A stretch of DNA of 64,000 bases from Pristiophorus japonicus (Eukaryota): contig NC_091979.1 of the NCBI RefSeq assembly GCF_044704955.1, positions 319,424,001 through 319,488,000 of the forward strand, written 5' to 3'. Shown here piece after piece: positions 10,562-61,990 of this stretch. The notes below the pieces were generated by a model, which was not told where the DNA came from, ran no database searches, and saw only the letters and a program-made list of their open reading frames with translations. Both the position numbers and the translations under genes were made by a program. The stretch's first letter is position 1. Every line of letters starts with the position of its first letter.

Positions 10562-11705
10562 CTGGATTGCGGTTACTGGGATCACACACAGATGAGTTCC
10601 TCACGGGCAGCCTGGGCAGAAAGGGACTGTCTAGGTTGTCTCCTCCCTTTCTCTTCCTCCTTTTCCTCTTCCTCCTCCTCCTCCTCCTGCTCATGCTCCT
10701 GACCCTCAGCTGCTTGCTGTATAGCAGGTGGCAAGCGCTGTGCCCTCATGATGGCGAGGTTGTGCAACATGCAGCAGACCACCACGAATCTTGACACCCG
10801 CTCTGGTGAGTACTACAGGGCCCCTCCAGAATGGTCCAGGCAGCGGAACTATTATTTCAGCATCCCAGTGGCCTGCTCCAGCACATTTTGTGTGGTAGCA
10901 CGGCTTTCATTGGCTTGTGCACCAGAGTCATCAGCCATATGGTCAGCAGATGGACCTTGTCGCCCAGTAGCCACCCTTTGGCTTTCCATTTTGGCTCAAG
11001 TGCAGCTGGCACAGCAGACTGCTGTAGAATGAAGGTGTCATGACTGTTGCCAGGATACCGGGCATTGACCTGCATGTTGTGCTGCCTACAGTCATACACC
11101 AGCTGGACCTTGAGGGAGTGGAATCCCTTTTGGTTCTGGCATGGGGCCCACAAAGTAATGTACGTGCAGCCAATGGCACCCCACACCATGGGGAGGCCTG
11201 CAATCCTAGCGAAGCCTCGTGCTCGCTTCCCCTGCTTGTCTCTGGCGAGAGAGAATGAAATGTAGTCAGAGATCTTTGAATAGAGAGACTCCGTGACCTC
11301 CTTTAACCAACAATGGATGGACAACTGCGAGATGTTGCAAATATCTCCAGCTCCAGCCTGGAAGGAGCCAGACCCATAAATGTTCATCGCCATGGTCACC
11401 TTCCCAGCCACTGGTAATGTGGTCCGTGCCCTGCTCTGAGGTTACAGTTGTGGTTGCAGGAGGTGGCAGATTTCAGTGAGGTCGTCCTTACTGAAGCGAA
11501 GGCGTCTCACACATTGTTTCTCATTGAGGTTCATATGGAAGAATTGCTCCCTAAACACCCTGGATATGGCCTGCTGCTGAAAGCCCTTCTCCCCATCCTC
11601 CTCCCCCCTCTTCCAGTAGATTGTCCTGCTCTGTGTGCCCTCTGTTCATTCTCCAAGTCTTGCTGCATTCCAAGGGGAATGCCTACTAGTGCACGCATGT
11701 CTGGG
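10562..11705 (-). mobile_element. PIF/Harbinger transposase pseudogene
   Basis: YGSGSFQAGAGDICNISQ, GAIGCTYI (GAIDCTHI), NARYPGNSHD, WLLGD, CCMLHNLA and an acidic tail. Frameshifted. Confidence 0.88.
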
Positions 11706-17979: not shown

Positions 17980-20900
17980 TGTCATGTATCTCACACTACT
18001 GTACATAACTGTATCTTACCATGCTATACATGACTGTAACTAGATATGACCTGTAACCACAAGCATACCTTACCACCAGGGGTGCACTTGCAGGAGACAC
18101 TGCATACCTGTTCCACACAGGTATATAAAGGCAGGTCTCAGGCAAGTGTGGCACTCGAGAGCTGTGAAATAAAGGTGCAGGTCCAGAGTGACCTTGACTT
18201 CAGCATTGCCTTGTGTAAGTCTGTACTGCAGGGTCAGGACTTTACAGTGGCGACGAGTTACGGGATCACAGAATCCACAGAATGGCTACCAACGGCTCAG
18301 ATGAGAAATACAATGCCGGAGACAATTGGGAGGACTTTATAGAAAGACTCCAGCAAAGCTTTGTAACCAAAGACGATGAGGCAGACAAGAGAAGAGCCCA
18401 TCTCTTGACCAGCTGTGGCTCGAAAACATACGCCTTAATGAAGGACCTGCTGGCACCCGAGAAACCAGCAAGCAAGTCGTTTGAGGAGTTGAGCACACTG
18501 GTGAGAGACCACCTGAAGCCAGTGAGCAGCCTACACATGGCCAGACACAGGTTCTACAACTACAGACGCTGTGTACAGAGCATACCCGACTTTGTGGCGG
18601 AACTTCGGAGGCTGGCTAGTTTATGTGAGTTCTCCGATGAACTAAGGAGAGAAGTACCGAGAGACTTTTTTATTGAAGGAATAGGCCATGCAGGCATATT
18701 CCGAAAGCTTATAGAGACCAAGAACTTGACTTTAGAGGCAGCAGCACTGGTCGCACAGACATTCTTGGCAGGAGAAGAAGAAACGAGGTTGATCTATACT
18801 GCGGGTACGACAACTAACGAAACATCAGAACAAGGGGTTCAAAGTGTGAATCAAGCCACTACCCCCACACACAGACAAAGACAGGAGAGCAGGTCTTCAA
18901 CAGCAGGCAGTGGCGCCAGAAGCCATCAAGGTCCACATGAACGGCCGTTCACACCTCATCAACCCACAATGCGAGCAATCAACTACAGACTGAGAGAAGC
19001 TCAAGAGAGACCAGCCAGACGCAGCTTATCCTTCGGAAACAATGGAAGCGGTCTGTGCTGGAGATGTGGGGGAAGGCACTCAACAGGGGGTGTCGATTTC
19101 AGCATGCTGTTTGCAGAAACTGCAACTATACAGGGCATCTGGCTCGCATGTGCAGAAAAACAACAGCTCGGCTGATATACGAATCGGATGGGTCGGAAAG
19201 CGGACCAGAAGACGGTGGGGACAGTGCCCGGGATGCTGGGGTACAGCGGGTCAACACGATCAATGTCCACTGTTCTTACAACAAGGCGCCTCCAATAATG
19301 ATGAGGGTCCTTCTCAACGGGATACCCATCAACATGGAACTGGACACGGGAGCTAGTCAATCTCTCATGAGCGTCCAACAATTTGAACAGCTGTGGCCGC
19401 AAAAGCAACAGACCAAAACTCACAAGGATCGACACCAAACTAAGGACCTATACCAAAGAAATCGTCCCAATCCTTGGCAGCACCATGCTCTCAGTCACAC
19501 ACAAAGGGACGGTGAACCAACTTCCCCTGTGGATTGTGCCCGGAGATCTCCCAGCACTGTTGGGGAGAAGCTGGCTGGCAAAACTAAATTGAAAATGGGA
19601 TGATGTTTACGCCATGTCGTCAGAGGAACGGACCTCCTGCTCAACAGTTTTAAGTCGTTTTGAACATCTCTTTCAGCCAGTTGTGGGCACCTTCAAAGGG
19701 GCTAAAGTTAAAATCTACAACACACAGGATGCCAGACCGGTCCATCACAAGGCTAGAGCTGTGCCTTCTGTGATGAGGGAAAAGATTGAACACGAACTGG
19801 ACCGGCTTCTGCGGGAAGGCATTATCTAACCCGTGGAATTTAGCGACTGGGCAAGTCACATCATTCCCGTCATGAAGCCTGATGGATCCATACGAATCTG
19901 TGGGGATTACAAGTCTACCATAAACAGAGTCTCCCTACAGGACCAATACCCGCTGCCCAGAGTGGAGGACCTATTTGCCACATTGGCTGGAGGAAAACTT
20001 CTCTCGAAACTAGATCTCACATCTGCGTATATGACACAAGAACTGACCGAAGAGTCTAAGCTACTCACCACCATCAACACACATCGAGGCCTTTTTGTGT
20101 ACAATCAATGCCCATTCGGCATCAGGTTGGCAGCTGCTATATTCCAGCGCAACATGGAGAGTCTGCCCAAGTCCATCCCGGGGACGGTTGTGTTTCAAGA
20201 TGACATACTCATCACGGGCAGGGACACCGACTCCCATCTCTGCAATTTGGAGCAAGTACCAAGTCGATTGGACCGGGTAGGCCTAAGAGTTAAGAAATCC
20301 AAGTGTCTGTTTCTCGCGCCCGAGGTTGAATTTTTGGGCAGAAGGACTCCGCCCAACAGAATCCAAAACCGAAGCAATTCGTCTGGCACCCAGGCCCCGG
20401 AACTGCACGCCTTTCTCGGGCGACTCAATTACTTTGGGAGCTTTATGCAGAACTTGAGCTGGCTGCTGGAGCCTCTCCACGTGCTACTCAGAAAGGGGTG
20501 CGATTGGTTTTGGGGAAATGCCCAAGAATGTGCCTTCAATAAGGCATGCGTCAGCATATGGGGTCAGGTGCGTTTTACAGCATGTCAATGATGCAGGTAA
20601 ATTACAACCCATTGCTTATGCCTCCAGGTCACTTTCGCGGGCGGAGCGCGGGTATAGTATGGTTGAGAAGGAGGCGCTCGCGTGCGTGTATGGTGTCAAA
20701 AAGATGCACCAATATCTTTTCGGGGCCAAGTTCGCATTAGAAACTGACCACAAACCCCTCACATCCCTGCTATCCGAGTGCAAAGCAATAAATGCCAATG
20801 CCTCGGCGTGTATTCAGCGGTGGGCACTCATGCTGGCGTCCTACGACTATACCATAAGGCACAGACCAGGCACAGACACGCGCTTAGCAGGCTACTCCTG

Positions 20901-22441
20901 GTGACCACGGAAGGGTCTGACGAACAGGACTGTGAGATGGTCATGGCAATCAATGCCTTTGAATCCACAGGTTCGCCCATGACGGCTCGTCAAATCAGAG
21001 CCTGGATGACCAGCAACCCCACGTTATCCTTAGTCAAAAGATGTGTTTTAACTGGTGACTGGGCAGAGGCTCGTGATGCCTGCCCCGAGGAGATCAAACC
21101 TTTCCATAGGCGCATGCATGAACTATCACTCCAGGCAGACTGCCTGATGTGGGGCAGCCGAGTAGTTATGCCCTTGCGAGGCAGAGAGGTGTTTGTCCGG
21201 GAGCTCCACCGCGAGCACCCGGGGATCGTCCTTATGAAGGCCATAGCCAGATCCCACGTCTGGTGGCCTGGCATTGACGCGGACTTGGAGCTCTGCGTCC
21301 GGCGGTGCACCATTTGTGCCCAACTCAGTAATGCACCCAGGGAGGCCCCCCTAAGCCCCTGGCCCTGGCCCACCAAACCGTGGTCGCGGGTGCATGTAGA
21401 CTATGCGGGCCCATTCATGGGCAAAATGTTCCTCGTAGTCATCGATGCATTTTCAAAGTGGATCGAGTGCACCGTTTTAAACTCGAGCACCATCTCTACC
21501 ACTGTGGAGAGCCTTAGAACCATGTTTGCAATGCCCGTAATTCCTGACATATTGGTCAGTGATAATGGTCCGTGCTTCACCAGCGCAGAATTTCAAGATT
21601 TTATAGGTGACCACGGCATAAATCATGTTAAGATGGCATTGTTCAAGCTGGCCTCCAATGGCCAGGTGGAACAAGCAGTACAAATCGTTAAACAAGGCAT
21701 GCTAAAAATCCAAGGTCCCATGCTGCAGAGCTGCCTGTCACGACTGCTACTGGCATACAGATCTCGTCCGCATTCGTTGACTGGGGTTCCCCCCGCGCAA
21801 CTGTTGATGAACTGGACCTTAAAGACTAGGCTCTCGTTAATCCTCCCAGACATACATGAAATTGTTGAGGCAAAGTGCCGGAAGCTAACTGAGTACCATG
21901 AACGAAATTTGAGGGGGAGGTGGAATGAGATAGGGGACAAAGTGTTTGTGCTAATCTATGGCAGGGGTCCCAAATTGCTTGCAGGGACAGAAACAGGCAA
22001 GGAAGGAAACAGGCTACTAGTTGTACAAATGGACAATGGCCAAACCTGCTGGGGGCATGTCGACCAAGTAAAAAGTAGATTCACCAACAACACTGCAGAA
22101 CCAGAGGCAGACTACAATGTGGAACTCACACCACACCTGGTGGACAGACAGAGGGAACAACCTGAGAAAAGGGCAGTCTCAACAGACAGCCCAGGCGAGA
22201 TACCAGCAGTCACACCGAAAGAAAAACAGGCACCAAGGCAAACAACTGACCCACAACTAAGACGCTCCATGCGAGAGCGCAGACCACCTGAGAGACTAAA
22301 TCTATAAAGCCAATAAGACCTTGGGGGAGGGTGTGGCAAGTGTGGCACTCGAGAGCTGTGAAATAAAGGTGCAGGTCCAGAGTGACCTTGACTTCAGCAT
22401 GTGCCTTGTTTAAGTCTGTACTGCAGGGTCAGGACGTTACA
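17980..22441 (+). mobile_element. Ty3/Gypsy LTR retrotransposon, near full length and degenerate
   Basis: 5' LTR TG..CA at 17980-18246, PBS TGGCGACGAG at 18248-18257, gag with two CCHC knuckles, protease LDTGA, RT FQDD, RNase H ETDHKPL, integrase HHCC/HVDYAGP/SDNG, PPT at about 22323-22333 and a truncated 3' LTR at 22334-22441. Flanks tttcc/cttcc give a 5-bp TSD with one mismatch. Confidence 0.95.
18282..22307 (+). pseudogene. Gypsy gag-pol, broken by frameshifts and stops
   Basis: Consecutive ORF pieces 18282-19175, 19055-19603, 19614-19829, 19833-20591, 20518-20904 and 20778-22307 run in PR-RT-RH-IN order. Confidence 0.92.
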
Positions 22442-23004: not shown

Positions 23005-23705
23005 CCCTGGGTTCCGAGAGTTCGGGAGGCCTGAGAGTTCGGGAGGTCTGAGAGTTCAGGAGGCCTGAGAATTCGGGAGGTCTGAGTGTTCAGGAGGTCT
23101 GAGAGTTCGGGAGGTCTGAGAGTTCAGGAGGCCTGAGTGTTCAGGAGGTCTGAGTGTTCGGGAGGTCTGAGTGTTCGGGAGGCCTGAGTGTTCAGGAGGT
23201 CTGAGAGTTCAGGAGGCCTGAGTGTTCAGGAGGTCTGAGAGTTCGGGAGGTCTGAGTGTTCAGGAGGTCTGAGAGTTCAGGAGGTCTGAGTGTTCGGGAG
23301 GCCTGAGTGTTCAGGAGGTCTGAGAGTTCAGGAGGTCTGAGTGTTCGGGAGGTCTGAGTGTTCAGGAGGTCTGAGTGTTCAGGAGGTCTGAGAGTTCAGG
23401 AGGCCTGAGTGTTCAGGAGGTCTGAGAGTTCGGGAGGTCTGAGTGTTCGGGAGGCCTGAGAATTCGGGAGGTCTGAGAGTTATGGAGGCCTGAGTGTTCA
23501 GGAGGTCTGAGAGTTCGGGAGGTCTGAGAGTTCGGGAGGTCTGAGAGTTCGGGAGGTCTGAGAGTTCGGGAGGTCTGAGAGTTCAGGAGGCCTGAGTGTT
23601 CGGGAGGTCTGAGAGATCCAGAGGTCCGAGAGTTCGGGAGGTCTGAGAGTTCTGGGGATCCAAGAGTTTGGGAGGTCCCGAGGTCCGAGAGTTTGGGAGG
23701 TCAGG
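23005..23705. repeat. 17-bp minisatellite, about 35-40 units, at the 5' end of a CR1
   Basis: Unit CTGAG(A/T)GTTC(A/G)GGAGG(T/C). It degenerates at the right end into the CR1 5' UTR. Confidence 0.95.
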
Positions 23706-23709
23706 AGTC

Positions 23710-24570
23710 CGAGGAGCAGAAAGCCCGGAGGTCGGCGAGGAGTTAACTTCTGGCGATGACCTCACAGTCCTCGTCCGGGCAGGTAAATGATTGGCTGTTT
23801 GATTGATAAGTATCTTTCTTTTTCTCTTTCTCTTTCTCTTTTATAATCAGATAAGTCTAATTAGAGGGATGACAGGGCAGCTCAGTCCCATGGACTTTAC
23901 ATCCTGCAGCATGTGGGAAGTCCTGGATGCTTTGTACGGCCTAGACGACCACGTGCGCAGGAGGTGTCTCCAGCTTCAACTACTCCAGCTCCGCGTTTCG
24001 AGCTTGAGTGGCGGCTGGAGTCAATACGGTGCATCCGCGAGGCTGAGAGCTACGTGGATAGCACGTTTCAGGAGGTGGTCACCCTGCAGCTTAAAAGTCT
24101 GCAGGTAACGGTGAAGTGGGTGAACACCAGACGGAGGAAGAATGCTAAACAGGTTGTACAGGATTCCCCCCGAGTCCACCTCGCTTTCCAACCGATATTC
24201 TCTTCTGAGCATCGGTGAGAGCGATGGTGCCTCTGGGGAGTGCAGCCAGAGCCAAGTCCAAGGCACCATGGGTGGTTCAGCTGCACAGCGGGGAGGGACA
24301 AAGAATAAAAGAGCTGTCGTGATAGGGGATTCAATAGTTAGGGGAATAGAGGCCTTTCTGTGGCCGTAGGCTTGACTCCAGGATAGTATGGTGCCTCCCT
24401 GGTGCCATGATCAAGGATGTCACAGAGCAGACGCAGGGCATTCTGGGGGGAGAGAGTCAATAGCTAGAGGTTGTGGTCCATATCGGGACCAATGACATAG
24501 GTAGAACGAGGGATGAGGTCCTGCAGGCAGAATTTAGGGCGCTAGGAGAAAAATTAAAGGGTAGGACCTC
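23710..24570 (+). mobile_element. CR1 5' UTR and ORF1 remnant
   Basis: MTGQLSP..SCSMWE..DDHV..C.QLQ, VVIGDSIVRG, CLPGA and VVVHIGTND. Confidence 0.85.
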
Positions 24571-24574
24571 AAAG

Positions 24575-25375
24575 GGAGTCATCAACATCAGCGGCAGTCC
24601 CTCGGAATCGAGGAGGACTTGCTTCCACTCTTAAAATGAGTTTGTGGGTGGTTGAACAGTCCAATATGAGAACCGCAGACTCTGTCATAGGTGGGGCAGA
24701 TCGTCGTTGAGAGAAGGGGTGGGAAGGACTGGTTTGCCGCACACTCTTTCTGCTGCCTGCGCTTGTTTTCTGCATGCTCTCGGCGATGAGACTTGAGGCA
24801 CTCAGTGCCCTCCCAGATGCACTTCCTCCACTTAGGGCAGTCTTTGGTCAGGGACTCCCAGGTGTCAGTGGGAATATTGCACTTTATCAGCGAGGCTTTG
24901 AGGGTGTCCTTCTAACGTTTCCTCTGCCCAGCTTTGGCTTGTTTGCTGAGTAGAGTGCTTGCTTTGGGAGTCTTGTGTCAGGCATGCGAACAATGTGGCC
25001 TGCCCAGCAGAGCTGATCAAGTGTGGTCAGTGCTTCAATGCTGGGGAGGTTGGCCTGGTCAAGGATGCTAATGTTGGTGCGTCTGTCCTCCCAGAGGATT
25101 TGTAGGATCTTGCAGAGACTTCGTTGGTGGTATCTCTCCAGCGACTTGAGGTGTCTGCTGCACATGGTCCATGTCTCTGAGCCATACAGGAGGACAAGTA
25201 TTACTACAGCCCTGCAGACCATGAGCTTGGTGGCAGTTTTGAGGGTCTGGTCTTCAAACACTCCTTTCCTCAGACGGCCGAAGGCTGCACTGGTGCACTG
25301 GAGGCGGTGTTGCACTTGTTCTCTGCATGCTCTCGACGATGAGACATGAGGTGCTCAGCGCCCTCCCGGATATAC
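24575..25375 (-). mobile_element. RTE-clade LINE 3' fragment
   Basis: AFGRLRKGVF..TKLMVCRAVV..LLYGSETW..WAGHIVRMPDTRLPKQ, with a GAT-like tail near 24578-24590. Confidence 0.88.
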
Positions 25376-27598: not shown

Positions 27599-27603
27599 AT
27601 GAG
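27599..27603 (+). CDS. IFIT: IFIT copy 2 coding exon 1 (ATGAG|GTAACG)
   Basis: Homologous to 3061-3065. The intron spans 27604-29895. Confidence 0.85.
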
Positions 27604-29895
27604 GTAACGGTCATTGGAATTCCTCCTTTATTTAAATTTACGTGGAGACTATCGAAGGAGCTAGTTTTCAGAAATAAAGTAGCTTACATTACAAAGCAGT
27701 TGAAATGCAGAGAGCTGGGATTAGTGGCTCACAGTGAGACACACAGATAAGGGAACACTGCTGCACCAAGACTGGTGATAGTCAGTAAACATGAGGCAAA
27801 AGGCAGACCTGTTCTTAGGATTATAACTCAAACAACAATTTACATTATTTTTGACTCGGCTTTGTTGAAAGTACAAAGTTAAACTTGAATATTATACTGT
27901 GGTGGAAAGGCGTATTCTGTAAGTGCCCTCAGGTCATATCCAGAGTTTGAAGAAAGAAAGTTTCACTTTGTGTTCCATGGGAATCTAGAAGGGATCTACT
28001 AATGTAAAATAGTGATTTCCAGCACTTTCATATATCCATACTAAAGCAACCTGAACTATAAAGCAAAGGGAGAGTACAGCATGGACTGTGATGGGGGGAT
28101 GGACACAGCACGAAATGCAGGAGGAGAGTGCCAGCTTAAAGTGTGTAGGAGAAGGAAAAGTGCTGACTTACATTGAGAATGTGGGCGGGGGAGAAGAGTG
28201 CTGACATGAACTGGGGGAAAGGACAGGTGCAGCAGTTTGAACGGAGCAGCAAAGGGAGGAAAGCCACCATGAACTGGGGCAGGGGTAAGAATGACAGCTT
28301 GGATTGTGGGGGGAGGGAGACGAGTGCCAACAGGAACAAGAGGCCGACGGAGTAGAGTGCAAGGAGAAGCTGGGATGACTGGGGGATGAAGTGCATCGAC
28401 GTGAATTTAACAGCAAGGAAGAAAGAATTTGTATTGATGTAACACATTATCACACCTCTTAGAAATGCCCCAAAGTGCTTCACATTCAGTGAATTATTTT
28501 GCAGTGCAGTCACTGTTGTTTTGTCGGGAAATGCGACAATTCAGTTTGCAGAACAACAATAACTGGCAATTATATAGCACTTTTCACCGAGTAAAACATC
28601 CCACAGTGCTTCACAGCAACGTAATCAGACAACAATGGACACCGAGGCAAAGAAGGGGACGGTTAGAGGGATGACAAAAGCTTAGTCAAAGAGATAGGAG
28701 ATTGTAAAGGAGGAGAGTGAGGTGGAGAGGTTCAGCGAGGGAATTCCAGAGTATCGGGCCTGTCTGGTCTGATGGCTCGGCCACCATCAGTGGGTGAAGT
28801 GGGAGAAGGACACGAGCCCGAGTTAGAGTAACACAGAATTCACGGATAATGCCATAGAATCTATGAGGTCCACTTGATCCACTGGAATAGGCAGAGGCTG
28901 CCTTGGTTTAACATCACACCTGGAGGATGGCATGGTGGAAGATTTTCAGCAGGGTAAGAGTCAGTTCATGAAACATGGTCTTTCAGAATGCTGATATCTT
29001 TGTGTTGGGCCTTTTCTGCTTTAAGGATGAGATTGGAGAGTGTTACATAGGATAGACAGCACAGAAACCGGCCATTCAGCCCAACCAGTCCATGTTGGTT
29101 TATGCTCCACTCGAGCCTCCTCCTGTCTTTCCTCAGCTAATTCTATCTGCATAACCCTCTAATCCCTTCTCCCTCATTTGCTTATCTAGTCTCCCCTTAA
29201 ATGCATCGATACTATTTACTTCAACCACTCCCTATGGTCGCGAGTTCCACATTCTCACCGCTCTCTGGGTAAAGAAGTTTCTTTTGTATTCCCTATTTGA
29301 TTTCTTGGTGTCTATCTTACACCTGATGGCCTCTAGTTTTGCTCCTCCTCACAGTGGAAACACTCTCTCTGTGTCGACTCTATCATAAACTTTCATAATG
29401 TGAAAGACCTCTCGGTTCTCCTTCCGCATGTTGGGGTGGGGAATGACCTGCTCACAGACAGCAGGGTCCCTGTGGAGGACCAGGTTGATGATCTGTTTAG
29501 TGGAGAGTTACCTGGACTGCCAATGTGAGAGGGAGAGTGTTTTAGAATTAGCTCTGACCTTTTTAGTGAGGAACTCCCATTTCAGAATGGAATGCATGAA
29601 TGAAAAGGAGTGGAGGTGTTTGAGGCGATGCTGCACATTGAGCGAGAAGACTAAATGTCCAGGAGCTGGTACATCAGCGAGCATGAAGGAGACCAGTGTG
29701 AGTACAGCTGAGATTTGCAGTCATACCTTTTCCTTTTGCAGTCGTTTTTGCAGAGGTCACCTTTGTGTGACCAGAGATTTCATGGTTAGTGGATCCAGGA
29801 GTCGGGAGAAGGCTTTAGTTAAAGAAACCGGAGAGAGGGGAGGGGGTGACACAGCCAGTCTGAGACGGGTTTTGATGAATTTTGTTCTCTTGCAG

Positions 29896-31348
29896 CAACA
29901 CACAGAAGGATTTGTTGAAAGTGAAGCTCGATCAGCTTCAATGTCACTTCACGTGGGGCCCACAGAAAGAAAACATTGACTTGGACAACATGAAGTATAG
30001 ATTGCAAGATTCAATACAGGCTGGTGTGAAATATCAGGCCAGGTCTTACAACCACCTCACTTTTGTAAACTGTCTGCAAGGCAACTGTGAAGAGGCAATT
30101 AAAAACTTAAAGGAAGCTGAAAAGATTCTGAGGGAGAACCATGAACATGAATTTGAAAGAAGAAGCATCATCACCTATGGAAACTATGCCTGGGTATATT
30201 ATCACATGGGCCAACTGACAGAGGCCCAGTCCTACCTCGACAAGCTGGAGATGATCTGTAAACAATTTACTGATGGCTCTCGGTATACAGCACTGATACC
30301 TGAAGTATACGGGGAGAAGGGTTGGTCACTGTTGAATTCTCCTAGTCAATACTATGAAGAGGCAAAGGAATGTTTTGAGAAGGCTCTGGAGGAAGATCCT
30401 GATGACACTGAATGGAACGTTGGCTATGCGACTGCTCTGTTCCGTCTGGAAGGGATTTCTGGTACCCCAGAGAGTGGTGACCGCAGCCAATCAGTGAAGC
30501 AGTTGCGACGTGTGCTGGAACTTGATCCAGATGACTCTGTAACCATGGTGCTGTTGGCTCTAAAACTACAAGAGTTCAATCAAAAGGAGGAAGCACTGAA
30601 ATTAGTTGAACAAGCATTGCAGAAGTCCCCTGATCTTCCATATGTAACTCGTTATGCAGCAAAGTTTTACAGAAGAGAAGGAGATGTGGAAAAAGCTGTG
30701 GAGCTATTGAAGAAAGCATTAGAAATTAGCACAAACTCTACCTTCATACACCACCAAATAGGTCTGTGTTACAGAAAAAAACTATTTCAACTGATCAAAT
30801 ATCCAGGCAGCAAAGACCTTCGCAATGCTGCTTTTCAACAGAAAACTGAGTTGATCAAACTATGCAAGTACCATTTTGAAAAGGCATTTGAGCCCCGCCC
30901 ATTAACATTTATTTTTGCACAACTGGATTTTGCAGGAATCTGTTCATTAAATGGAGAATATCTCAAAGCAGAGGAGATTTACAGTAATCTACTGAAATTA
31001 GAGGATTTTCATCCTGATAATAAGCAGGCAGTATATGCGCAGTTTGGGTTATATGAACTGCATCACAAAAGATCTGAATCAAATGCCATCAGCTATTTTC
31101 TGGAAGGACTTAAAATCCAACGTGACACAGTGGAATGGCAATTGTGTCGCGAAAACTTGAGAAAGATTGCAACAAAACAAATTGACAGGAATCCCAGAGA
31201 CAGCAAGGCCTTTGGTGTTCTTGGGTTACTGCACCAGCTGGATGGGGAGAAGTGTGAAGCTATTGAGTGCTTTGAAAAGGCTTTGGAGTTTGATTGTGAC
31301 AATGAAGAATATCTAAGTGCTCTTTGTGAATTACGCCTTTCTATCTAA
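29896..31348 (+). CDS. IFIT: IFIT family protein copy 2, exon 2 (485 aa spliced)
   Basis: Intact ORF with all IFIT motifs, acceptor ttgcag|C and a TAA stop. Confidence 0.96.
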
Positions 31349-33589: not shown

Positions 33590-34925
33590 CCCGCTACAAT
33601 CCCCGGCCGAAAGGACTGTTCCCCACTGGCTGGACCCAGTACAATCTCCCGAAAGGACTGTTCCTCACCGGCTGGACCCACTACAATCCCCCCGAAAGGA
33701 CTGTTCCCCACCGGCTGGACCCACTACAGTCCCCTGAAAGGACTGTTCCCCACCGGCTGGACCCAGTACAATCTCCCGAAAGGACTGTTCCTCACCGGCT
33801 GGACCCACTACAATCCCCGGAAAGGACTGTTCCTCACCGGCTGGACCCACTACAATCCCCGAAAAGACTGCTCCTCACCGGCTGGACCCACTACAATCCA
33901 CCCGAAAGGACTGTTCCCCACCGGCTGGACCCAATACAATCCACCCCGAAAGGACTGTTCCTCACTGGCTGGACCCACTACAATCCCCCCGAAAGGACTG
34001 TTCCACACCGGCTGGACCCAGTACAATCCCCCCGAAAGGACTGTTCCCCATCGGCTGGACCCACTACAATCTCCCGAAAGGACTGTTCCTCACCGGCTGG
34101 ACACACTACAATCCCCCGAAAGAACTGTTCCCCACCGGCTGGACCCAGTACAATCCCCCCGAAAGGACTGTTCCCCACCGGCTGGACCCACTACAATCCC
34201 CGGAAAGGATTGTTCCCCACCGGCTGGACCCAGTACAATCTCCCGAAAGGACAGTTCCTCACCGGCTGGACCCAGTACAATCCCCCCGAAAGGACTGTTC
34301 CCCACCGGCTGGACCCACTACAATCCCCGGAAAGGACTGTTCCCCACCGGCTGGACCCAGTACAATCCCCCCGAAAGGACTGTTCCCCACCGGCTGGACC
34401 CACTACAATCTCCCGAAAGGACAGTCCCTCACCGGCTGGACCCACTACAATCCCCTGAAAGGACTGTTCCCCACTGGCTGGACCCACTACAATCCCCCCG
34501 AAAGGACTGTTCCCCACCGGCTGGACCCACTACAATCCCCGGAAAGGACTGTTCCCCACTGGCTGGACCCACTACAATCTCCCGAAAGGACAGTCCCTCA
34601 CCGGCTGGACCCACTACAATCCCCTGAAAGGACTGTTCCCCACTGGCTGGACCCACTACAATCTCCCGAAAGGACAGTCCCTCACCGGCTGGACCCACTA
34701 CAATCCCCTGAAAGGACTGTTCCCCACTGGCTGGACCCACTACAATCCCCCCGAAAGGACTGTTCCCCACTGGCTGGACCCACTACAATCCCCCCGAAAG
34801 GACTGTTCCTCACCGGCTGGACCCACTACAATCCCCCCGAAAGGACTGTTCCCCACCGGCTGTGCCCACTACAATCCCCCCGAAAGGACTGTTCCCCACC
34901 GGCTGGACCCACTACAATCCCGGAC
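33590..34925. repeat. 42-43-bp minisatellite, about 31 units
   Basis: Unit CCGGCTGGACCCA(C/G)TACAATCCCCC(C)GAAAGGACTGTTCC(C/T)CA. The paralogous shorter array is at 59220-59705. Confidence 0.95.
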
Positions 34926-35700: not shown

Positions 35701-35799
35701 GATGGGTGCAGGGATCATGAAGTGCGATTAACCTGTGGCTGTTAATTGCAATGCAGGCAGCAAGTCAACTTTGTGCTGCCTGCTCATTTGAATGATCTG

Positions 35800-38600
35800 T
35801 GTATCCAACTAGTGCTAACCACACAACAGGGGAGCTAGCGGGCACCAAGTTTGTCGGATGGAGAACTGGAGGTCTTGCTGGAGGAGGTGGAAAGGAGGCG
35901 AGATGTTCTGTATCCACAGTGGGGCCGGAGGCCCTCCAGACACACGGTCAAAAGGAAGTGGAAGCAGATAGTCGTGGTGGTCAGTGCCCGGAGTCAAGCC
36001 CCGAGGACCTGGATACAGTGCCGCAAGAAGTTCAATGACCTCACATGAGTGGCCAAGGTCAGTGAATGCATCTTCAAATGCCATGTCTTCCCAACTGCAA
36101 CACGAGCCACACCCACTGACCGCAGCCAATCAGTGAAGCGGTTACAACGTGTGCTGGAACTTGATCCAGATGACTCTGTAGCCATGGTGATGTTGACTCT
36201 AAAACTACAAGAGTTCAATCAAAAGGAGGAAGCACTGAAATTAGTTGAACAAGCATTGCAGAAGTCCCCTGATCTTCCATATGTAACTCGTTACGCAGCA
36301 AAATTTTACAGAAGAGAAGGAGATGTGGAAAAAGCTGTGGAGCTATTGAAGAAAGCATTAGAAATTAGCCCAAACTCAACCTTCATACACCACCAAATAG
36401 GTCTGTGTTACAGAAAAAAACTATTTCAACTGATCAAATATCCAGGCAGCAAAGACCCTCGCAATGCTGCTTTTCAACAGAAAGCTGAGTTGATCAAACT
36501 ATGCAAGTACCATTTTGAAAAGGCATTTGAGCCCCGCCCATTAACATTTATTTGTGCACAACTGGATTTTGCAGAAATCTGTTCATTAAATGGAGAATAT
36601 CTCAAAGCAGAGGAGATTTACAGTAATCTACTGAAATTAGATGATTTTCATCCTGATAATAAGCAGGCAGTATATGCGCAGTTTGGGTTATATGAACTGC
36701 ATCACAAAAGATCTGAATCAAATGCCATCAGCTATTTTCTGGAAGGACTTAAAATCCAACGTGACACAGTGGAATGGCAATTGTGTCGCGAAAACTTGAG
36801 AAAGATTGCAACAAAACAAATTGACAGGAATCCCAGAGACAGCAAGGCCTTTGGTGTTCTTGGGTTACTGCACCAGCTGGATGGGGAGAAGTGTGAAGCT
36901 ATTGAGTGCTTTGAAAAGGCCTTGGAGTTTGATTGTGACAATGAAGAATATCTAAGTGCTCTTTGTGAATTACGCCTTTTTATCTAAATCAACGACTCTC
37001 CCAGCTAAAACTAAACACAGCGGGTAGAGTTTCTGCTTTGGGTGCAAATTGCACTTGAAGTTACGCTGGTTAGCTTACAGTTTAAGTTTCCACTAAATGC
37101 ATTTGCTTAATTACAAACGTAAAATCTTCCAAGAACCAGTGCAGTCAGTCAGTGTAACAGAATATAATCAGTTATTTTTTGCATTAAAAATATTCATTGA
37201 TATATTTAAGAGTGGCAATTGGTGCAGCTTTATTGATACAGCTGAAAATGGATGTAACCTGCAAAATTAAATATTTTTAGTCAGTCTTTCAGCTGTGCTT
37301 TACCTGATTTCAGGTGATGTAAATGGCTTTAAAATCTATACTGAACCAGTTATAAGTTTTATTGTTGTACACTAGTCAGACTTTTAATAATTTAAATATT
37401 TTTAAGATGTAAAACCTATTAAATTGTGCCTACTAGTGCCTGGGCACCTCAGAAAACCAGCTCAATTTGAAAACACCCACTGCTCAATTCACCACATCCC
37501 CATCACTCACCTACCAACAATCTCTCCAACAACCAACAGGCCTCATACCTCACATCCGTAGCTTCACTTCGCCCTCACACACTGAACTCCGACATCTCAC
37601 AGCTTGCACACTCAGCCAGCTATTGAATCATGACAGCCACATCAGCCAAACAGTTTGCACGAAAGTCACTGACACGCTTCCCTCTCTCTCACTGGACAAG
37701 GTGGCATACAATCAAATGCAGCAGGTGCTAACTGGAGGGGACAGGCGCGTTTGCATGTCCTAACACCCGTGGAGGAGGTGGTGCCGGCCTTTATTGAGAT
37801 GCCCAAAGTTGAGCAAGTGGCCAGCGGCAGGGCTAAAACCATCCCATTTTCCTCTCATCCCACAATCTGATTTACAAGCTGCAGATGGTGTAAGCATGTA
37901 CCTCTTACTTTCCCCTCACTTCCTCGCACCACAACTTATTCTTGTGCCTTTTTCCTTTCAGATACACAAGTGTTGCAATCTGCCCAGGCAGTGGAGGAAC
38001 AGCAAGAAGAGAGTGACCGTCACTTGATTTCACACTCACAGCCACCGGCTCAGATACTGACACTGCTATGTTAGAGGATAGATTAGAGGCGGGATCTGCA
38101 CGTGGTGAGACACCGGGCACGTGTGGGTTGCAGCCAGGGCAGGTGGCAAGGATAGCACAGGTGCCAGCTCACCGGAGGGCGAGGGCACAGACAGGTTTCG
38201 TTGCCGAGGACTCAGATACGGAGTTCGATGGGGCAGCCGACAGAGGAACGCTGATGGGTTTGCACAATGAAGGCTTGGTGCATTGGCAGGCCTGCCAGAA
38301 AGCCTGTGGTCAATGTCACGGAGCATGGAGGAGTCTTCACCAGCTTGGCACAGGGCTTTGAGCAGAGTTTGGAGCCCATCCTTTCCGGCATGGAAGTGGT
38401 GGCAAACTCTGTTCGCACACTTGTGGATCCAACCATGATGCAGCATCTGATGGCCAGTGTCACCACTTCCATTGCAGCAGAAGCAGCCATCCATCCTCTG
38501 AACTCTGCAGCCAACTAACCCGCCTCTGATCGGGCCCACAAAGACCCCAGAACATCCTGACTATACTCCCCCCGCATCCCGTCTCAGGTGATAGCCTCCG
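35800..38600 (+). mobile_element. Harbinger Myb/SANT gene remnant interrupted by an IFIT insert
   Basis: SDGELEVLLEEVERRRDVL..W.QI..VVSA...RTWIQCRKKFNDL, with a donor at 36058. The uninterrupted paralogue is at about 60590-61990. Confidence 0.8.
36119..37472 (+). pseudogene. IFIT: 5'-truncated IFIT copy (C-terminal ~290 codons plus ~490 nt of 3' UTR) flanked by a 10-bp TSD
   Basis: Nearly identical to 56110-57463. ACACCCACTG at 36109-36118 and 37473-37482. No promoter or exon 1. The frame is open to TAA at 36987. Confidence 0.9.
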
Positions 38601-38774: not shown

Positions 38775-39320
38775 CTAATCAGCAGCAGCATTGGAGGAGG
38801 TGGCAAGATTTAAACAGCAGAGGAGAGACCAGTGTAGACCTAATCAGCAGCAGCATTGGAGGAGAGGCAAGATTTAAACAGCAGAGGAGAGACCAGTGTA
38901 GACCTAATCAGCAGTAGCATTGGAGGAGGGGCAAGATTTAAACAGCAGAGGAGAGACCAGTGTAGACCTAATCAGCAGCAGCATTGGAGGAGGGGCAAGA
39001 TTTAAACAGCAGAGGAGAGACCAGTGTAGACCTAATCAGCAGCAGCATTGGAGGAGAGGCAAGATTTAAACAGCAGAGGAGAGACCAGTGTAGACCTAAT
39101 CAGCAGTAGCATTGGAGGAGGGGCAAGATTTAAACAGCAGAGGAGAGACCAGTGTAGACCTAATCAACAGCAGCATTGGAGGAGGGACAAGATTTAAACA
39201 GCAGAGGAGAGACCAGCGTAGACCTAATCAGCAGTAGCATTGGAGGAGGGGCAAGATTTAAACAGCAGAGGAGATACCAGTGTAGACCTAATCAGCAGCA
39301 GCATCGGAGGAGCAGAGAGG
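38775..39320. repeat. 64-bp minisatellite, about 8.5 units, at a CR1-like 5' end
   Basis: Unit CTAATCAGCAGCAGCATTGGAGGAGGGGCAAGATTTAAACAGCAGAGGAGAGACCAGTGTAGAC. Only about 2.5 units at 62283-62445. Confidence 0.93.
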
Positions 39321-55525: not shown

Positions 55526-56978
55526 CAACACACAGAAGGATTTGTTGAAAGTGAGTCTCGATTGGCTTCAATGTCACTTCACATGGGGCCCACAGAAAGA
55601 AAACATTGACTTGGACGACATGAAGTATAGATTGCAAGATTCAATACAGGCTGGTGTGAAATATCAGGCCAGGTCTTACAACCACCTCGCTTTTGTAAAC
55701 TGTCTGCAAGGCAACTGTGAAGAGGCAATTCAAAACTTAAAGGAAGCTGAAAAGATTCTGAGGGAGAACCATGAACATGAATTTGAAAGAAGAAGCATCA
55801 TCACCTATGGAAACTATGCCTGGGTATATTATCACATGGGCCAACTGACAGAGGCCCAGTCCTACCTCGACAAGCTGGAGATGATCTGTAAACAATTTAC
55901 TGATGGCTCTCGGTATACAGCACTGATACCTGAAGTATACGGGGAGAAGGGTTGGTCACTGTTGAAATCTTCCAGGAAATATTATGAAGAGGCAAAGGAA
56001 TGTTTTGAGAAGGCTCTGGAGGAAGATCCTGATGACACTGAATGGAACGTTGGCTATGCGACTGTTCTGTTCCGTCTGGAAGGGTTTTCTAGTACCCCAG
56101 AGAGTGGTGACCGCAGCCAATCAGTGAAGCGGTTACAACGTGTGCTGGAACTTGATCCAGATGACTCTGTAGCCATGGTAATGTTGGCTCTAAAACTACA
56201 AGAGTTCAATCAAAAGGAGGAAGCACTGAAATTAGTTGAACAAGCATTGCAGAAGTCCCCTGATCTTCCATATGTAACTCGTTACGCAGCAAAATTTTAC
56301 AGAAGAGAAGGAAATGTGGAAAAAGCTGTGGAGCTATTGAAGAAAGCATTAGAAATTAGCCCAAACTCAACCTTCATACACCACCAAATAGGTCTGTGTT
56401 ACAGAAAAAAACTATTTCAACTGATCAAATATCCAGGCAGCAAAGACCCTCGCAATGCTGCTTTTCAACAGAAAGCTGAGTTGATCAAACTATGCAAGTA
56501 CCATTTTGAAAAGGCATTTGAGCCCCGCCCATTAACATTTATTTGTGCACAACTGGATTTTGCAGAAATCTGTTCATTAAATGGAGAATATCTCAAAGCA
56601 GAGGAGATTTACAGTAATCTACTGAAATTAGATGATTTTCATCCTGATAATAAGCAGGCAGTATATGCGCAGTTTGGGTTATATGAAATGCATCACAAAA
56701 GATCTGAATCAAATGCCATCAGCTATTTTCTGGAAGGACTTAAAATCCAACGTGATACAGTGGAATGGCAATTGTGTCGCGAAAACTTGAGAAAGATTGC
56801 AACAAAACAAATTGACAGGAATCCCAGAGACAGCAAGGCCTTTGGTGTTCTTGGGTTACTGCACCAGCTGGATGGGGAGAAGTGTGAAGCTATTGAGTGC
56901 TTTGAAAAGGCCTTGGAGTTTGATTGTGACAATGAAGAATATCTAAGTGCTCTTTGTGAATTACGCCTTTCTATCTAA
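55526..56978 (+). CDS. IFIT: IFIT family protein copy 3, exon 2 (485 aa spliced)
   Basis: Intact ORF with IFIT motifs, acceptor ttgcag|C and a TAA stop. Confidence 0.96.
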
Positions 56979-59219
56979 ATCAACGACTCTCCCAGCTAAA
57001 ACTAAACACAGCGGGTAGAGTTTCTGCTTTGGGTGCAAATTGCACTTGAAGTTACGCTGGTTAGCTTACAGTTTAAGTTTCCACTAAATGCATTTGCTTA
57101 ATTACAAACGTAAAATCTTCCAAGAACCAGTGCAGTCAGTCAGTGTAACAGAATATAATCAGTTATTTTTTGCATTAAAAATATTCATTGATATATTTAA
57201 GAGTGGCAATTGGTGCAGCTTTATTGATACAGCTGAAAATGGATGTAACCTGCAAAATTAAATATTTTTAGTCAGTCTTTCAGCTGTGCTTTACCTGATT
57301 TAAGGTGATGTAAATGGCTTTAAAATCTATACTGAACCAGTTATAAGTTTTATTGTTGTACACTAGTCAGACTTTTAATAATTTAAATATTTTTAAGATG
57401 TAAAACCTATTAAATTGTGCCTACTAGTGCCTGGGCACCTCAGAAAACCAGCTCAATTTGAAAACGCTCCTCGAAAGGTTGCAAATGGACGCAATGGGCG
57501 GAAACTCACCATCCTCGTTATTTCTATCTGGGGGTGTGACCAGTTTTGTGGGCGGCGCCAGCTTCGGACAGAAAGCTTTTTAAACCAGGGTTAAAGATCC
57601 CGGAAATCTCGGTTGATGCTTGACAGAACTTATGCTCGAGTTTCTGCGATCTTTTACACTGGTTCGGCCGATTTCACCCGGATTGTGCAATTTCCCTGCT
57701 ACACGGGATGGCCGGTATCATGCCTGAAGAAAGATTAATTTCTCTCTCTCTCTGTGTAACGAGCCGCCCGCAGCTCCCTGATTTGCAGCCTCTTCAATGG
57801 ATGGGGAACAACAGCCTGTCGGGTGAAGCAACAACCGCGGGCCCTTTGCTCAATAAAACCTGGCGGGACAGCATCAGAGTCCTGAATAAGAGATGAATTA
57901 TTGTTTGGTGGGGGACAGGATGAGTGCCAGTGCTCCTTCAGAATAATGTGGGCTTAATTTTATTCATCCCACTGCTGACAAGGAGCCTCAGTCATTGACA
58001 TTGTTAAAACGGGATGGTCGGTATCACGCCTGAAGAAAGATTATGTTCTCTCTCTCCCTGTAACGAGCCGCCCGCAGCTCCCTGATTTCCTGCCTCTTCA
58101 ATGGAAGCGGTTAATTTCCACCACGGCTAAGGGATATAAAAATAAGTTAAAATGATGAAAAATAATAAAGCTTTATAGTTGCAGATACAGATTTCTCAAT
58201 GAGAAATGTTAATTTGCTGTAATATCAGAGATTGAGTGTTAAAATAACCAATAAAAAGATACTACAACTACAATTTTATTTGTGTCATTGATCTGTGCTA
58301 ATGCTGACAGTAAGTGTCACTCATAATCCACACTTTGTGATGGTGAACTGTACCAGCTCTGTAAGGAACATTCAGACCAGCCTTTAACACAGGCAGTAAA
58401 CTGAACAGCTGTTGATTGTGGAGTGACACATGGCCCTTACACTGCTAGCTGTAGCCACAGTGCTATTAGAGAAAGGTGAGGGAGGAATAGTTGGGAAGAT
58501 CCAGAGGAATGGGACAATGGAAGAATCTAACATTGGGAGAGGCTGCAGACGCCTCACATCATATTTAGACCTATTGGAAAAGCAGCCCCTGGAAGGGTTC
58601 AGCTTTTCTGTGGAGGTATTGTCCCAGGTCTGTGCAATGCTGGAAACTAGTTTTAAGGTATTGGAGGGGCTGCACAGACACCTGTGTGTGGGAGGGCGGA
58701 GGTGGGGGGGGGTAAATTGGACAGCCCCGAAGACATAAGAACATTCAAAATCAGAGCAGGAGGAGGCCATTTGGCCCTTCGAGCCTGCTCCGCCATTCAA
58801 TGAGATCATGACTGATGTACCTCAATTCCACCTTCCCGCACTATCCCCATATCCTTTAATTCCCTTTATTCCCAAAATTTTATCGGCCTCTGTCTTGAAT
58901 ATACTCAACGACTGAGCATCCACAGCTCTCTGGGGTAGAGAATTGCCAAGGTTCACACCCCTTTGAGTGAAGACATTTCTCCTCATCTCAGTCCTAAATT
59001 GCCTATCCCTTATTCTGTGACTGTGACCCTGTGTTCGAAATTCCCCAGACAGGGAAAACATTTACCCAGCATTAACCCCCCAGCATTAACCCTGTCAAGC
59101 CCCGTAAGAATTTTATATCTTTCAATTTTTCAATTGTGTGAAAACAAATTATCTTTTTTTCACGGGGAACTCTTTTTGGAGCAAGGGAAGAACATTTCCG
59201 GTCAAAAGGACTGCTTCTC

Positions 59220-59705
59220 CCGCTACAATCCCCGGCCGAAAGGACTGTTCCCCACTGGCTGGACCCACTACAATCTCCCGAAAGGACTGTTCCCCACCGG
59301 CTGGACCCACTACAATCCCCCCGAAAGGACACTTCCCCCACCGGCTGGACCCAGTACAATCCCCTGAAAGGACTGTTCCCCACCGGCTGGACCCAGTACA
59401 ATCCCCTGAAAGGACTGTTCCCCACCGGCTGGACCCAGTACAATCCCCTGAAAGGACTGTTCCCCACTGGCTGGACCCACTACAATCCCCCCGAAAGGAC
59501 TGTTCCCCACCGGCTGGACCCACTACAATCCCCTGAAAGGACTGTTCCTCACCGGCTGGACCCACTACAATCCCCTGAAAGGACTGTTCCTCACCGGCTG
59601 GACCCACTACAATCCCCCCGAAAGAACTGTTCCCCACCGGCTGGACCCACTACAATCCCCCCGAAAGGACTGTTCCTCACCGGCTGGACCCACTACAATC
59701 CCGGA
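59220..59705. repeat. 42-43-bp minisatellite, about 11 units
   Basis: Same unit as 33590-34925. Confidence 0.93.
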
Positions 59706-60589
59706 CTGAATGGCCCCCCCGGTCACCCTGCGAGTTGAAGTTCAGGAGCCGGAGGGCCATTCGGCCGGAGATTGCACCGGGTCCCGCCGGTGGGGAGCAG
59801 TCCTTTCAGGGGAGTGGGTTTCAGCTTGCATCAGCGTCTCTGGTTGTCCTGGCAACTTCAGCTTTTTGCGCATGCCCAGAGAGTTTTTACCGTAGACTTG
59901 TAGCTCCGCCCCAAACTAACTTCGGAGAGCGTTGCACCAAATTCAAATATTTCTTTGACGAAAGTCCCAATTTTTTTTCTCTGCCGCAAACGCACAGAAA
60001 AAAATCATACATTAACATGTGTGGGCATCAAAAATCCAGCAAATAGAAAATAGGGGCCTTTATCTCTCTGCAGCCTCTTTGTGTGCTCCTCTCAGCTTGC
60101 TTTCCCACCTAACTTTGTATCATCAGCAAAGTTGGATACGTTTTACACTGTCCCTTCATCGAAATCATTAATATAGATTGTAAATAGCTGAGGCCCAAGC
60201 ACTGAACCTTGTGGTACCCCTCTAGTCACAGCCTGCCAAACTTAAACATTCTTGGTTATTCCTACTCTCTGTTTTCTGTCCATTAACCAGTTTCAATCCA
60301 TGCTAATATATTACCCCCAATACCATGAGACGTAATTTTGTGTAATAACCTCTGGTGTGACACCTTATCGAATGTTTTTTGAAAATCCAAATACACTACA
60401 CCCACTGGTTTCCCCCTTATCCATCCTGCAAGTTACATCTTCAAAAAACTCAAAACAGATTTGTCAAACACGATTTCCCATTCATAAAAGATGGATGCAG
60501 GGATCATGAAGTGCGATTAACCTGTGGCTGTTGATTGCAATGCAGGCAGCAAGTCAACTTTGTGCTGCCTGCTCATTTGAATGATCTGT

Positions 60590-61990
60590 GTATCCAACTA
60601 GTGCTAACCACACAACAGGGGAGCTAGCGGGCACCAAGTTTGTCGGATGGAGAACTGGAGGTCTTGTTGGAGGAGGTGGAAAGGAGGCGAGATGTTCTGT
60701 ATCCACAGTGGGGCCGGAGGCCCTCCAGACACACGGTCAAAAGGAAGTGGAAGCAGATAGTCGTGGCAGTCAGTGCCCGGAGTCAAGCCCCGAGGACCTG
60801 GATACAGTGCTGCAAGAAGTTCAATGACCTCACATGAGTGGTCAAGGTCAGTGAATGCATCTTCAAATGCCATGTCTTCCCAACTGCAACACGAGCCACA
60901 CCCACTGCTCAATTCACCACATCCCCATCACTCACCTACCAACAATCTCTCCAACAACCAACAGGCCTCATACCTCACATCCGTAGCTTCACTTCGCCCT
61001 CACACACTGAACTCCGACATCTCACAGCTTGCACACTCAGCCAGCTATTCAACCATGACAGCCACATCAGCCAAACAGTTTGCACGAAAGTCACTGACAC
61101 GCTTCCCTCTCTCTCACTGGACAAGGTGGCATACAACCAAATGCAGCAGGTGCTAACTGGAGGGGACAGGCGCGTCTACATGTCCTCACACCCGTGGAGG
61201 AGATGGTGCTGGCCTTTATTGAGATGCCCAAAGTTGAACAAGTGGCCAGCGACAGGGCTAAAACCATCCCATTTTCCTCTCATCCCACAAGCTGATTTAC
61301 AAGCTGCAGATGGTGTAAGCACGTACCTCTTACTTTCCCCTCACTTCCTTGCACCACAACTTATTCTTGTGCCTTTTTCCTTTCAGATACACAAGAGTTG
61401 CAATCTGCCCAGGCAGTGGAGGAACAGCAAGAAGAGAGTGACCGTCACTTGATTTCACACTCACAGCCACCGGCTCAGACACTGACACTGCTATGTTAGA
61501 GGATAGATTAGAGGCGGGATCTGCACGTGGTGAGACACCGGGCACGTGTGGGTTGCAGCCAGGGCAGGTGGCAAGGATAGCACAGGTGCCAGCTCACCGG
61601 AGGGCGAGGGCACAGACAGGTTTCGTTGCCGAGGACTCAGATACGGAGTTCGATGGGGCAGCCTACAGAGGAACGCTGATGGGTTTGCACAATGAAGGCT
61701 TGGTGCATTGGCAGGCCTGCCAGAAAGCCTGCAGTCAATGTCACGGAGCATGGAGGGGTCTTCACCAGCTTGGCACAGGGCATGGAAGTGGTGGCAAACT
61801 CTGTTCGCACACTTGTGGACCCAACCATGATGCAGCATCTGATGGCCAGTGTCACCACTTCCATTGCAGCAGAAGCAGCTATCCATCCTCTGAACTGTGC
61901 AGCCAACTAACCCGCCTCTGCTCGGGCCCACAAAGACCCCAGAACATCCTGACTATACTCCTCCCGCACCCTGTCTCAGGTGATAGCCTC
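60590..61990 (+). mobile_element. Harbinger Myb/SANT gene remnant (empty-site paralogue)
   Basis: ORF 60640-60837 carries the Myb/SANT motif. ACACCCACTG occurs once, at 60898-60907. Confidence 0.8.

Follow-up and report, generated by a model that had tools for sequence, protein, structure and literature searches.

A single piece of IFIT exon 2 in a Harbinger remnant of the Pristiophorus japonicus IFIT array, probably placed by local templated repair

Part of an IFIT gene is inserted once into a dead PIF/Harbinger-type remnant in the window, the 64,000-nucleotide stretch of Pristiophorus japonicus contig NC_091979.1 that was analysed (positions 319,424,001 to 319,488,000 of the forward strand). 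The insert is best explained, with a probability of about 0.6, by a one-off local repair at a staggered break that was templated by DNA and copied part of a neighbouring IFIT gene. This value, like the words used to grade the alternatives below, is a judgement and not a computed value. The anatomy of the junctions, the single copy, the ancestral empty site, a template from the young clade of the array and the position of both ends inside the transcript are all seen directly. The event is a real insertion of a known kind and not a new gene-mobilising system. The features at the insert and at its paralogous positions, numbered as in the window, are as follows.

36109..36118, + strand: left copy of the duplicated target, ACACCCACTG, with its last 2 nt (TG) matching the donor
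36119..37472, + strand: IFIT exon-2 piece, 1,354 nt, comprising the C-terminal ~290 codons, the stop and the proximal 3′ UTR
36184..36987, + strand: residual 267-codon ORF from an internal Met, predicted by reading the sequence
37021..37472, + strand: left part (~450 nt) of a MITE-like repeat of ~690 bp that is native to the IFIT 3′ UTR
37473..37482, + strand: right copy of the duplicated target, ACACCCACTG, with its first 2 nt (AC) matching the donor
56110..57463, + strand: part of IFIT copy 3 that matches the insert; copy 3 is a candidate donor among the 13 genes in the clade of the insert
60898..60907, + strand: empty paralogous site, one of 26

The inserted 1,354 nt align to copy 3 without gaps and with seven substitutions, and are bounded on each side by ACACCCACTG, which is single at the empty paralogous site. 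The 10-bp duplication and the empty site of the original prediction were thus recovered where it had placed them. The final two nucleotides of the left copy, TG, are the donor bases that precede the 5′ junction, and the initial two of the right copy, AC, are those that follow the 3′ junction. As both overlaps might be donor-derived, the duplication measures 10 bp as read but could be as short as 6 bp. Overlaps of at least 2 nt at both junctions, which had also been predicted, arose with p=0.025 in simulations on the local sequence. The 3′ end of the insert is the templated GAAA(AC), and the absence of an untemplated A tail was likewise borne out. The sequence GCTCAATT, claimed to be common to donor end and target, is indeed present at 37460/57451 and at 37482/60907, but an 8-mer common to both within 25 nt of either end is at chance level in the same kind of simulation (p=0.063), and GCTCAATT lacks collinearity with the junction; it was rejected as a guide for the insertion and is at most a possible docking aid. 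An excised circle reinserting at AC was also rejected by inspection, as it predicts a duplication of 2 bp and not of 10 bp. The product of the insertion is likely to be a pseudogene fragment. The piece lies wholly inside exon 2, as a random local window of 1.35 kb does about 5% of the time, and because it crosses no intron, the only one being upstream, DNA and RNA templates are not directly distinguishable.

The window sits in an IFIT array of ~3.2 Mb on NC_091979.1 (hereafter C3), at 316.3–319.6 Mb, with units of 22–26 kb in both orientations and with mosaic haplotypes. Membership of the IFIT family is supported by a TPR protein homologous to IFIT1/5 and by two exons, the first with the ATG and 2 nt before the splice donor (ATGAG/GT); the parent gene matches IFIT5 over residues 6–489 (E 8e-117). 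The insert matches 23 other copies at 97.7–99.6%, all with an open 489-codon exon 2 frame, and 16 more at 87–89% (40 scored matches, all on C3). With seven further IFIT-like places the array reaches 46 or more such loci on a single contig, although locus counts may include duplicated haplotypes, as some array blocks are identical over kilobases. Two-exon genes with the ATG and 2 nt in exon 1, arranged in tandem and duplicated in a lineage-specific manner, are described for IFIT clusters elsewhere (PMC3688568), and the two-exon layout, tandem cluster and lineage-specific duplication are shared by the array here. The same account reports eight IFIT loci in the elephant shark, compared with the at least 46 on one contig here, and, in its treatment of IFIT clusters and IFIT1P pseudogenes, the known intronless copies sit away from the cluster, whereas the insert is inside its own array (PMC3688568). 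A second IFIT cluster was seen on C5 at 24.72–25.14 Mb, with eight matches, two of which (L077 and L078) were checked and have open IFIT frames at 88% nucleotide identity.

Two copies in the window bear most closely on the choice of donor, copy 3 and the filled unit's own gene:

27599..31348, + strand: IFIT copy 2, the filled unit's own gene, with exon 1 ending at 27603 and exon 2 starting at 29897; other clade

A tree of 24 segments groups the insert with copy 3 and L002 in a clade of 14 rows (99/98) that leaves out copy 2, and the insert is 99.0–99.6% identical to its closest copies. L002, 3.1 Mb away on the opposite strand, has three differences and a 3-nt indel relative to the insert, compared with the seven substitutions of copy 3. 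The 3-nt deletion in the insert is common to copy 3 and five other copies, and other alleles are common to L002. The residues offered in the original prediction as diagnostic of copy 3 separate it from copy 2 but are common to other genes of the array. Its choice of copy 3, ~20 kb away, as the likely donor therefore retains the ungapped match but is unproven, as L002 at 3.1 Mb is closer in sequence. An earlier form of copy 3 would be a fair candidate on sequence comparison; copy 3 as the proven donor was rejected, with 13 near-equal genes in the clade, as was copy 2 in its present form, which belongs to the other clade.

The target is empty in 17 units at 97–100% identity and in nine at ~85%, and these 26 empty array paralogues against one filled site indicate an ancestral empty state and a single insertion. 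Of the 40 scored matches in the assembly, only 1 spans the 5′ junction. Relative to the 23 array copies the insert has just two private substitutions in 1,354 nt, and the flanks of the filled unit differ by 1.7–3.5% from all 17 other close units, so the event is young relative to the unit duplications. Misassembly, or a chimeric read in a repetitive array, is highly improbable as the source of this arrangement. Among the contigs listed for two DNA runs of one sample the empty and donor forms are present with no junction contig, as such a source would have it, though contigs drop rare forms and this counts as evidence neither way; the two private alleles are not among the contigs listed for the same two runs, with the same proviso. 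Array blocks identical over kilobases, and the possibility of duplicated haplotypes, point the same way. Against these stand an insert equal to none of the 23 copies, two clean junctions staggered by 10 bp and the 1.7–3.5% by which both flanks depart from every one of the other 17 units. Two rearrangements, a tandem duplication and then a deletion, might also mimic an insertion in a mosaic array, and the 3′ junction alone can be read as a deletion of 3.0–3.8 kb that joined the IFIT UTR to the Harbinger site across a 2-bp overlap. Both events would however need a break at the same Harbinger site to within 10 bp, the single-junction intermediate is absent among the 40 scored matches, and the clade of the insert differs from that of its own unit's gene, which makes this sequence of events very unlikely.

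The host element is represented by its Myb/SANT part:

35711..38497, + strand: host PIF/Harbinger-type remnant, Myb/SANT part only; ends approximate, projected from the empty unit 60500–61889
35839..36057, + strand: Myb/SANT-like exon remnant (PF13873, E 3.5e-11, over the cut-off), with TGA at 36046 and without an in-frame ATG

Thirteen dispersed relatives at 69–83% share the Myb region, six of them with a match to transposase inside the same 10 kb, and together these support a PIF/Harbinger origin. In the array remnant neither a transposase nor a pair of terminal repeats was found, and its homology to the 13 dispersed copies stops internally; the host flanks of the insert are collinear with the empty Harbinger copies. 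The insert lies ~50 nt behind the probable splice donor (GT at 36058) of the Myb/SANT exon, and the IFIT piece is in frame with this exon by way of a putative intron. The frame would be expected of a mobile Pack-Harbinger carrying IFIT or of a functional Myb–IFIT fusion gene, but with one copy, a remnant devoid of terminal repeats and transposase, and a TGA at 36046 with no in-frame ATG upstream, either is scarcely credible, and a Myb–IFIT fusion protein was rejected on the last two grounds. The TGA is common to 14 of the 17 close empty units; the other three (L041, L044 and L046) keep CGA, and the stop is thus a variable CpG change. Capture by Harbinger, in the words of the original prediction, is not supported in the sense of a mobile Pack element, given the single copy and the lack of terminal repeats and transposase in the remnant, and the Harbinger-borne IFIT piece that it suggested looking for elsewhere in the genome did not appear, the junction being unique among the 40 scored matches. 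Under repair at a staggered break the transposon would be a passive landing site. Elsewhere in the window there are a DDE_Tnp_4 transposase fragment (10857–11441, minus) and, at 18219–22307, broken LTR-retrotransposon-like frames (gag, protease, RT and integrase-like by eye) inside another Harbinger-like stretch. A LINE end at 24887–25354 (minus), which gave no Pfam match, is presumably RTE-like.

The 3′ junction was compared with transcript sequence. Runs X6 and X7, classed as RNA by their spliced joint and not by the run record, contain a joint at about 27601–29894 (GT..AG) in copy 2, where the intron is 27604–29896. Contigs of 889 nt (X5, X6) and 839 nt (X7) bridge 31836, the homologue of the 3′ junction, by at least 300 nt, and as the RNA contigs continue past this position the 3′ junction is internal to the 3′ UTR. 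A transcript end near 57463, for which the original prediction had suggested a test, is disfavoured by the same extension of the spliced-run contigs. Assembled contigs cannot map RNA ends, and a minor shorter isoform ending near the ATTAAA at 57409 is possible. The main signal may lie further downstream:

58164..58169, + strand: candidate main poly(A) signal, an AATAAA located 701 nt past the 3′ junction

Near 32525 the contigs of X5, X6 and X7 give out while those of the DNA run continue, but these three runs belong to one study and this does not place the transcript end; X5 and X6 also have no cover of the left Harbinger flank, which, coming from runs of one study, was not used as evidence. 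In the young IFIT copies the 3′ UTR holds an old MITE-like repeat of ~690 bp (57012 to ~57700, and also at 31.4–32.1 kb) that has terminal inverted repeats in its dispersed copies and is crossed by the RNA contigs. A transposon terminus at the 3′ breakpoint of the donor was rejected, as the breakpoint falls in the middle of this MITE.

The alternative with most to commend it, possible though a good deal less probable than repair, is a tail-less 5′-truncated retrocopy: an L1/Tx1-like LINE would have nicked the target, IFIT RNA would have been primed internally at GAAAAC, and the 5′ end would have been joined by 2-nt microhomology. The RNA could have been nascent, near its locus, or mature and landing by chance, and about half of the weight given to this alternative is on the copy being made in cis. 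The original prediction had also offered a retrocopy, and it survives in this internally primed, tail-less form; priming at the transcript end does not, as RNA contigs bridge the homologue of the junction. The confinement of the piece to exon 2 is as expected of a retrocopy, and precedents are provided by L1: tail-less, 3′- and 5′-truncated copies flanked by target-site duplications (TSDs) are known (PMC5322556), and truncation at the 5′ end goes with shorter TSDs and with microhomology of 2 nt (PMC11702581). On the other hand, the prior for landing in its own array is ~5e-4 with no young copy elsewhere among the 40 scored matches, exact pairing of the primer is only 2 nt in a GC-rich target, and retrocopies of highly expressed genes are rare here.

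To calibrate these readings, paralogous units covering 1.06 Mb, roughly one third of the array, were compared, giving 27 strict and 98 relaxed clusters of filled and empty sites; 10 of the 27 strict events were followed back to their sources, and many of the 98 relaxed clusters are deletions or repeat-to-repeat artefacts. Five of the 98 have an overlap of at least 6 bp, namely a tandem-like short duplication (21 bp), a 110-bp microsatellite-tailed LINE end (6 bp), a LINE-to-LINE pair (6 bp), a U2-headed SINE (16 bp) and the IFIT insert (10 bp), and no other recognised insertion like the IFIT insert was found among the 27 strict and 98 relaxed clusters in this 1.06 Mb. The clearest insertions of microsatellite-tailed LINEs, which we take to be CR1-like, have overlaps of 4, 5 and 6 bp and none of 7 bp or more, in few events. 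The SINE is of a different kind, and one of its copies is the following:

C3 318169656–318170009, minus strand: U2-headed SINE copy; 30 copies read (L179–L208)

It is ~355 bp long, young, dispersed and A-tailed, with copies 97–98% identical and 2,263 first-look candidates; a second U2-like start lies inside it, and the U2 match is below the Rfam gathering score. By eye, duplications of 7–18 bp are clear in 16 of the 30 copies, ambiguous in two, replaced by a tandem pair in one and lacking in 11; they mostly begin with A, with no strict TT/AAAA site. The 7–18 bp of the SINE against the 4–6 bp of the LINEs suggests that an enzyme making duplications of such a size on A-tailed RNA is active and is likely not CR1. 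The young SINE thereby gives the retrocopy alternative an active trans-acting enzyme suited to the role. Priming in the style of CR1, as put forward in the original prediction, fits poorly, since the 4–6-bp overlaps are those of the microsatellite-tailed insertions and the longer duplications belong to the SINE, making CR1 the less likely enzyme for a retrocopy. Crocodilian SINEs of the U2-headed type have been ascribed to Tx1 LINEs, and within that study SINEU was not detected outside crocodilians (PMC4494074); a literature search found no description of SINEU in sharks, which is no proof of its absence from them. If the LINE enzyme that moves the U2-headed SINE had reverse-transcribed nascent RNA of a neighbouring IFIT gene back into the cluster, the insert would be a case of tail-less retroposition in cis, a doubtful proposition on present evidence.

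Retrocopies of mRNA are scarce in this genome. For three ribosomal-protein genes the intronless copies number one (RPL21), one (RPS3A) and none (RPL15); the RPL21 retrocopy (L209:1433–2030) is without an evident A tail, and that of RPS3A (L212) is 5′-truncated with a tail of seven A. A 243-nt part of the RPL21 retrocopy is found again within a MITE that lies 1.1 kb upstream of the retrocopy (L209:327–569, C3 66.927 Mb), with overlaps of CC and GCAT, ~25 bp of target lost and an internal gap of 31 nt. Judged by its sequence this capture is a textbook single-copy Pack-TIR, and it indicates that local templated capture occurs in the genome, there with a deletion.

Repair at a staggered break would have proceeded as follows. 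A break in the dead Harbinger remnant would leave 3′ overhangs, the top end probably finishing in ...CTG and the bottom end probably able to pair with AC. One broken end would then use 2 nt to prime on a neighbouring IFIT copy, 1.35 kb would be copied, presumably from a DNA template and with template switching, and the other end would be rejoined through 2 nt, after which fill-in would duplicate the 6–10-bp overhang. Synthesis of the SDSA or Pol-theta type may be responsible, and paired nicks or a LINE endonuclease might have made the break. The overlaps at both tips of the insert are located where a 10-nt 3′ stagger would expose them, a geometry that fits repair synthesis and target-primed reverse transcription equally. 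It is the location that favours repair, as all 24 matches of at least 97% to the proximal UTR are in the C3 array and none is elsewhere among the 40 scored, while a randomly landing retrocopy would rarely fall in an array that is 0.054% of the genome. In the work summarised in PMC8355091, small duplications arise at breaks with 3′ overhangs, and Pol theta works through microhomology at the ends; the insert resembles these products of NHEJ fill-in and Pol-theta end joining in its overhang duplication and tip microhomology, and differs in its kilobase filler, the duplications there being short and in cultured cells (PMC8355091). Several observations count against repair. A duplication of 6–10 bp is what target-primed reverse transcription classically leaves, and its length and A start fit the active SINE machinery. 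Pack-TIR gap filling is typically accompanied by a small loss of target, with a median of 4.6% of the TE (PMC8277862), and the RPL21 case lost ~25 bp, whereas the IFIT insert has duplicated target. The wholly exonic piece would arise by chance in only ~5% of cases, though readers notice gene pieces preferentially; the A4 run at the end of the insert is of the kind that internally primed copies tend to have; and the insert is the sole recognised event of its kind in the 1.06 Mb of array.

Of the systems compared, Pack-TIRs (Tan et al. 2021, PMC8277862) are closest. The insert shares with them a non-TE piece in an old TIR transposon, a single copy, a source on the same chromosome, 2-bp microhomologies and empty homologous sites, and their list includes PIF-Harbinger hosts (PMC8277862). 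Non-TE filler of 100–5,000 bp is present between two parts of one TIR element at no less than 90% identity and of like length, and the marks of gap filling, TG/AC overlaps and close sources that are all on C3 within 3.1 Mb, are present also. Single-copy Pack-TIRs have a median overlap of 2 bp, which the 2 nt at each junction of the insert equal, and 57% are no more than 15 kb from the source (PMC8277862). The insert differs in duplicating 6–10 bp of target where theirs is slightly deleted, in a host without recognisable termini, in a source that is not unique and in a length of 1.35 kb that exceeds most fillers among 97 of the 370 rows of Supplementary Data 1 (PMC8277862). Since the flanks do not reach TIR termini, and since there are 13 near-equal genes and a 3′ breakpoint in a MITE in place of a unique parent with TE-free 100-bp flanks, it is not filed as a Pack-TIR. 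It nevertheless works like a single-copy one and is a new instance of templated insertion, an ordinary kind of mutation; of the two options in the original prediction, the local repair-templated insertion of Pack-TIR type is the better supported. With one filled site, and a junction found once among the 40 scored matches, it is not a multicopy Pack element, and with no added tail and RNA contigs that continue past the junction it is not a classical processed pseudogene. The combination of a TSD of 8–35 nt and no tail that defines tailless retropseudogenes is present (10 bp as read, 6 bp at the minimum). The likeness to those described by Noll et al. (2015, PMC5322556) covers the missing A tail, a TSD inside their 8–35-nt screen if it is 10 bp, an RNA-internal 3′ end in an A run and the 5′ truncation. 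Theirs are due to therian L1 at A-rich targets, in contrast to a GC-rich target with 2 nt of exact priming here, and the insert lies in its own gene array, with no dispersed sisters found (PMC5322556). The target, GAGCC/ACACCC, is not TT/AAAA and gives exact pairing of 2 nt, and the local SINE machinery is also without a strict site.

The insert can serve to mark one unit of a fast-changing immune-gene array, and it cautions against taking a target-site duplication by itself as proof of retroposition. Retroposition in cis, if true, would seed gene pieces beside their parents, where they would be misread as DNA duplication. The expansion of IFIT to at least 46 loci plus a second cluster, and the young U2-headed SINE, may merit more attention than the insert itself. 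Length also varies between paralogous units at minisatellites, which lie in the window at 7677–8126, 23013–23716, 33590–34921, 38775–39312 and 59219–59702. A unique insertion of 2,680 bp, of composite repeat content and with a 3-bp overlap, is present in one unit of the array (C3 316359971–316362650) against 13 empty sites.
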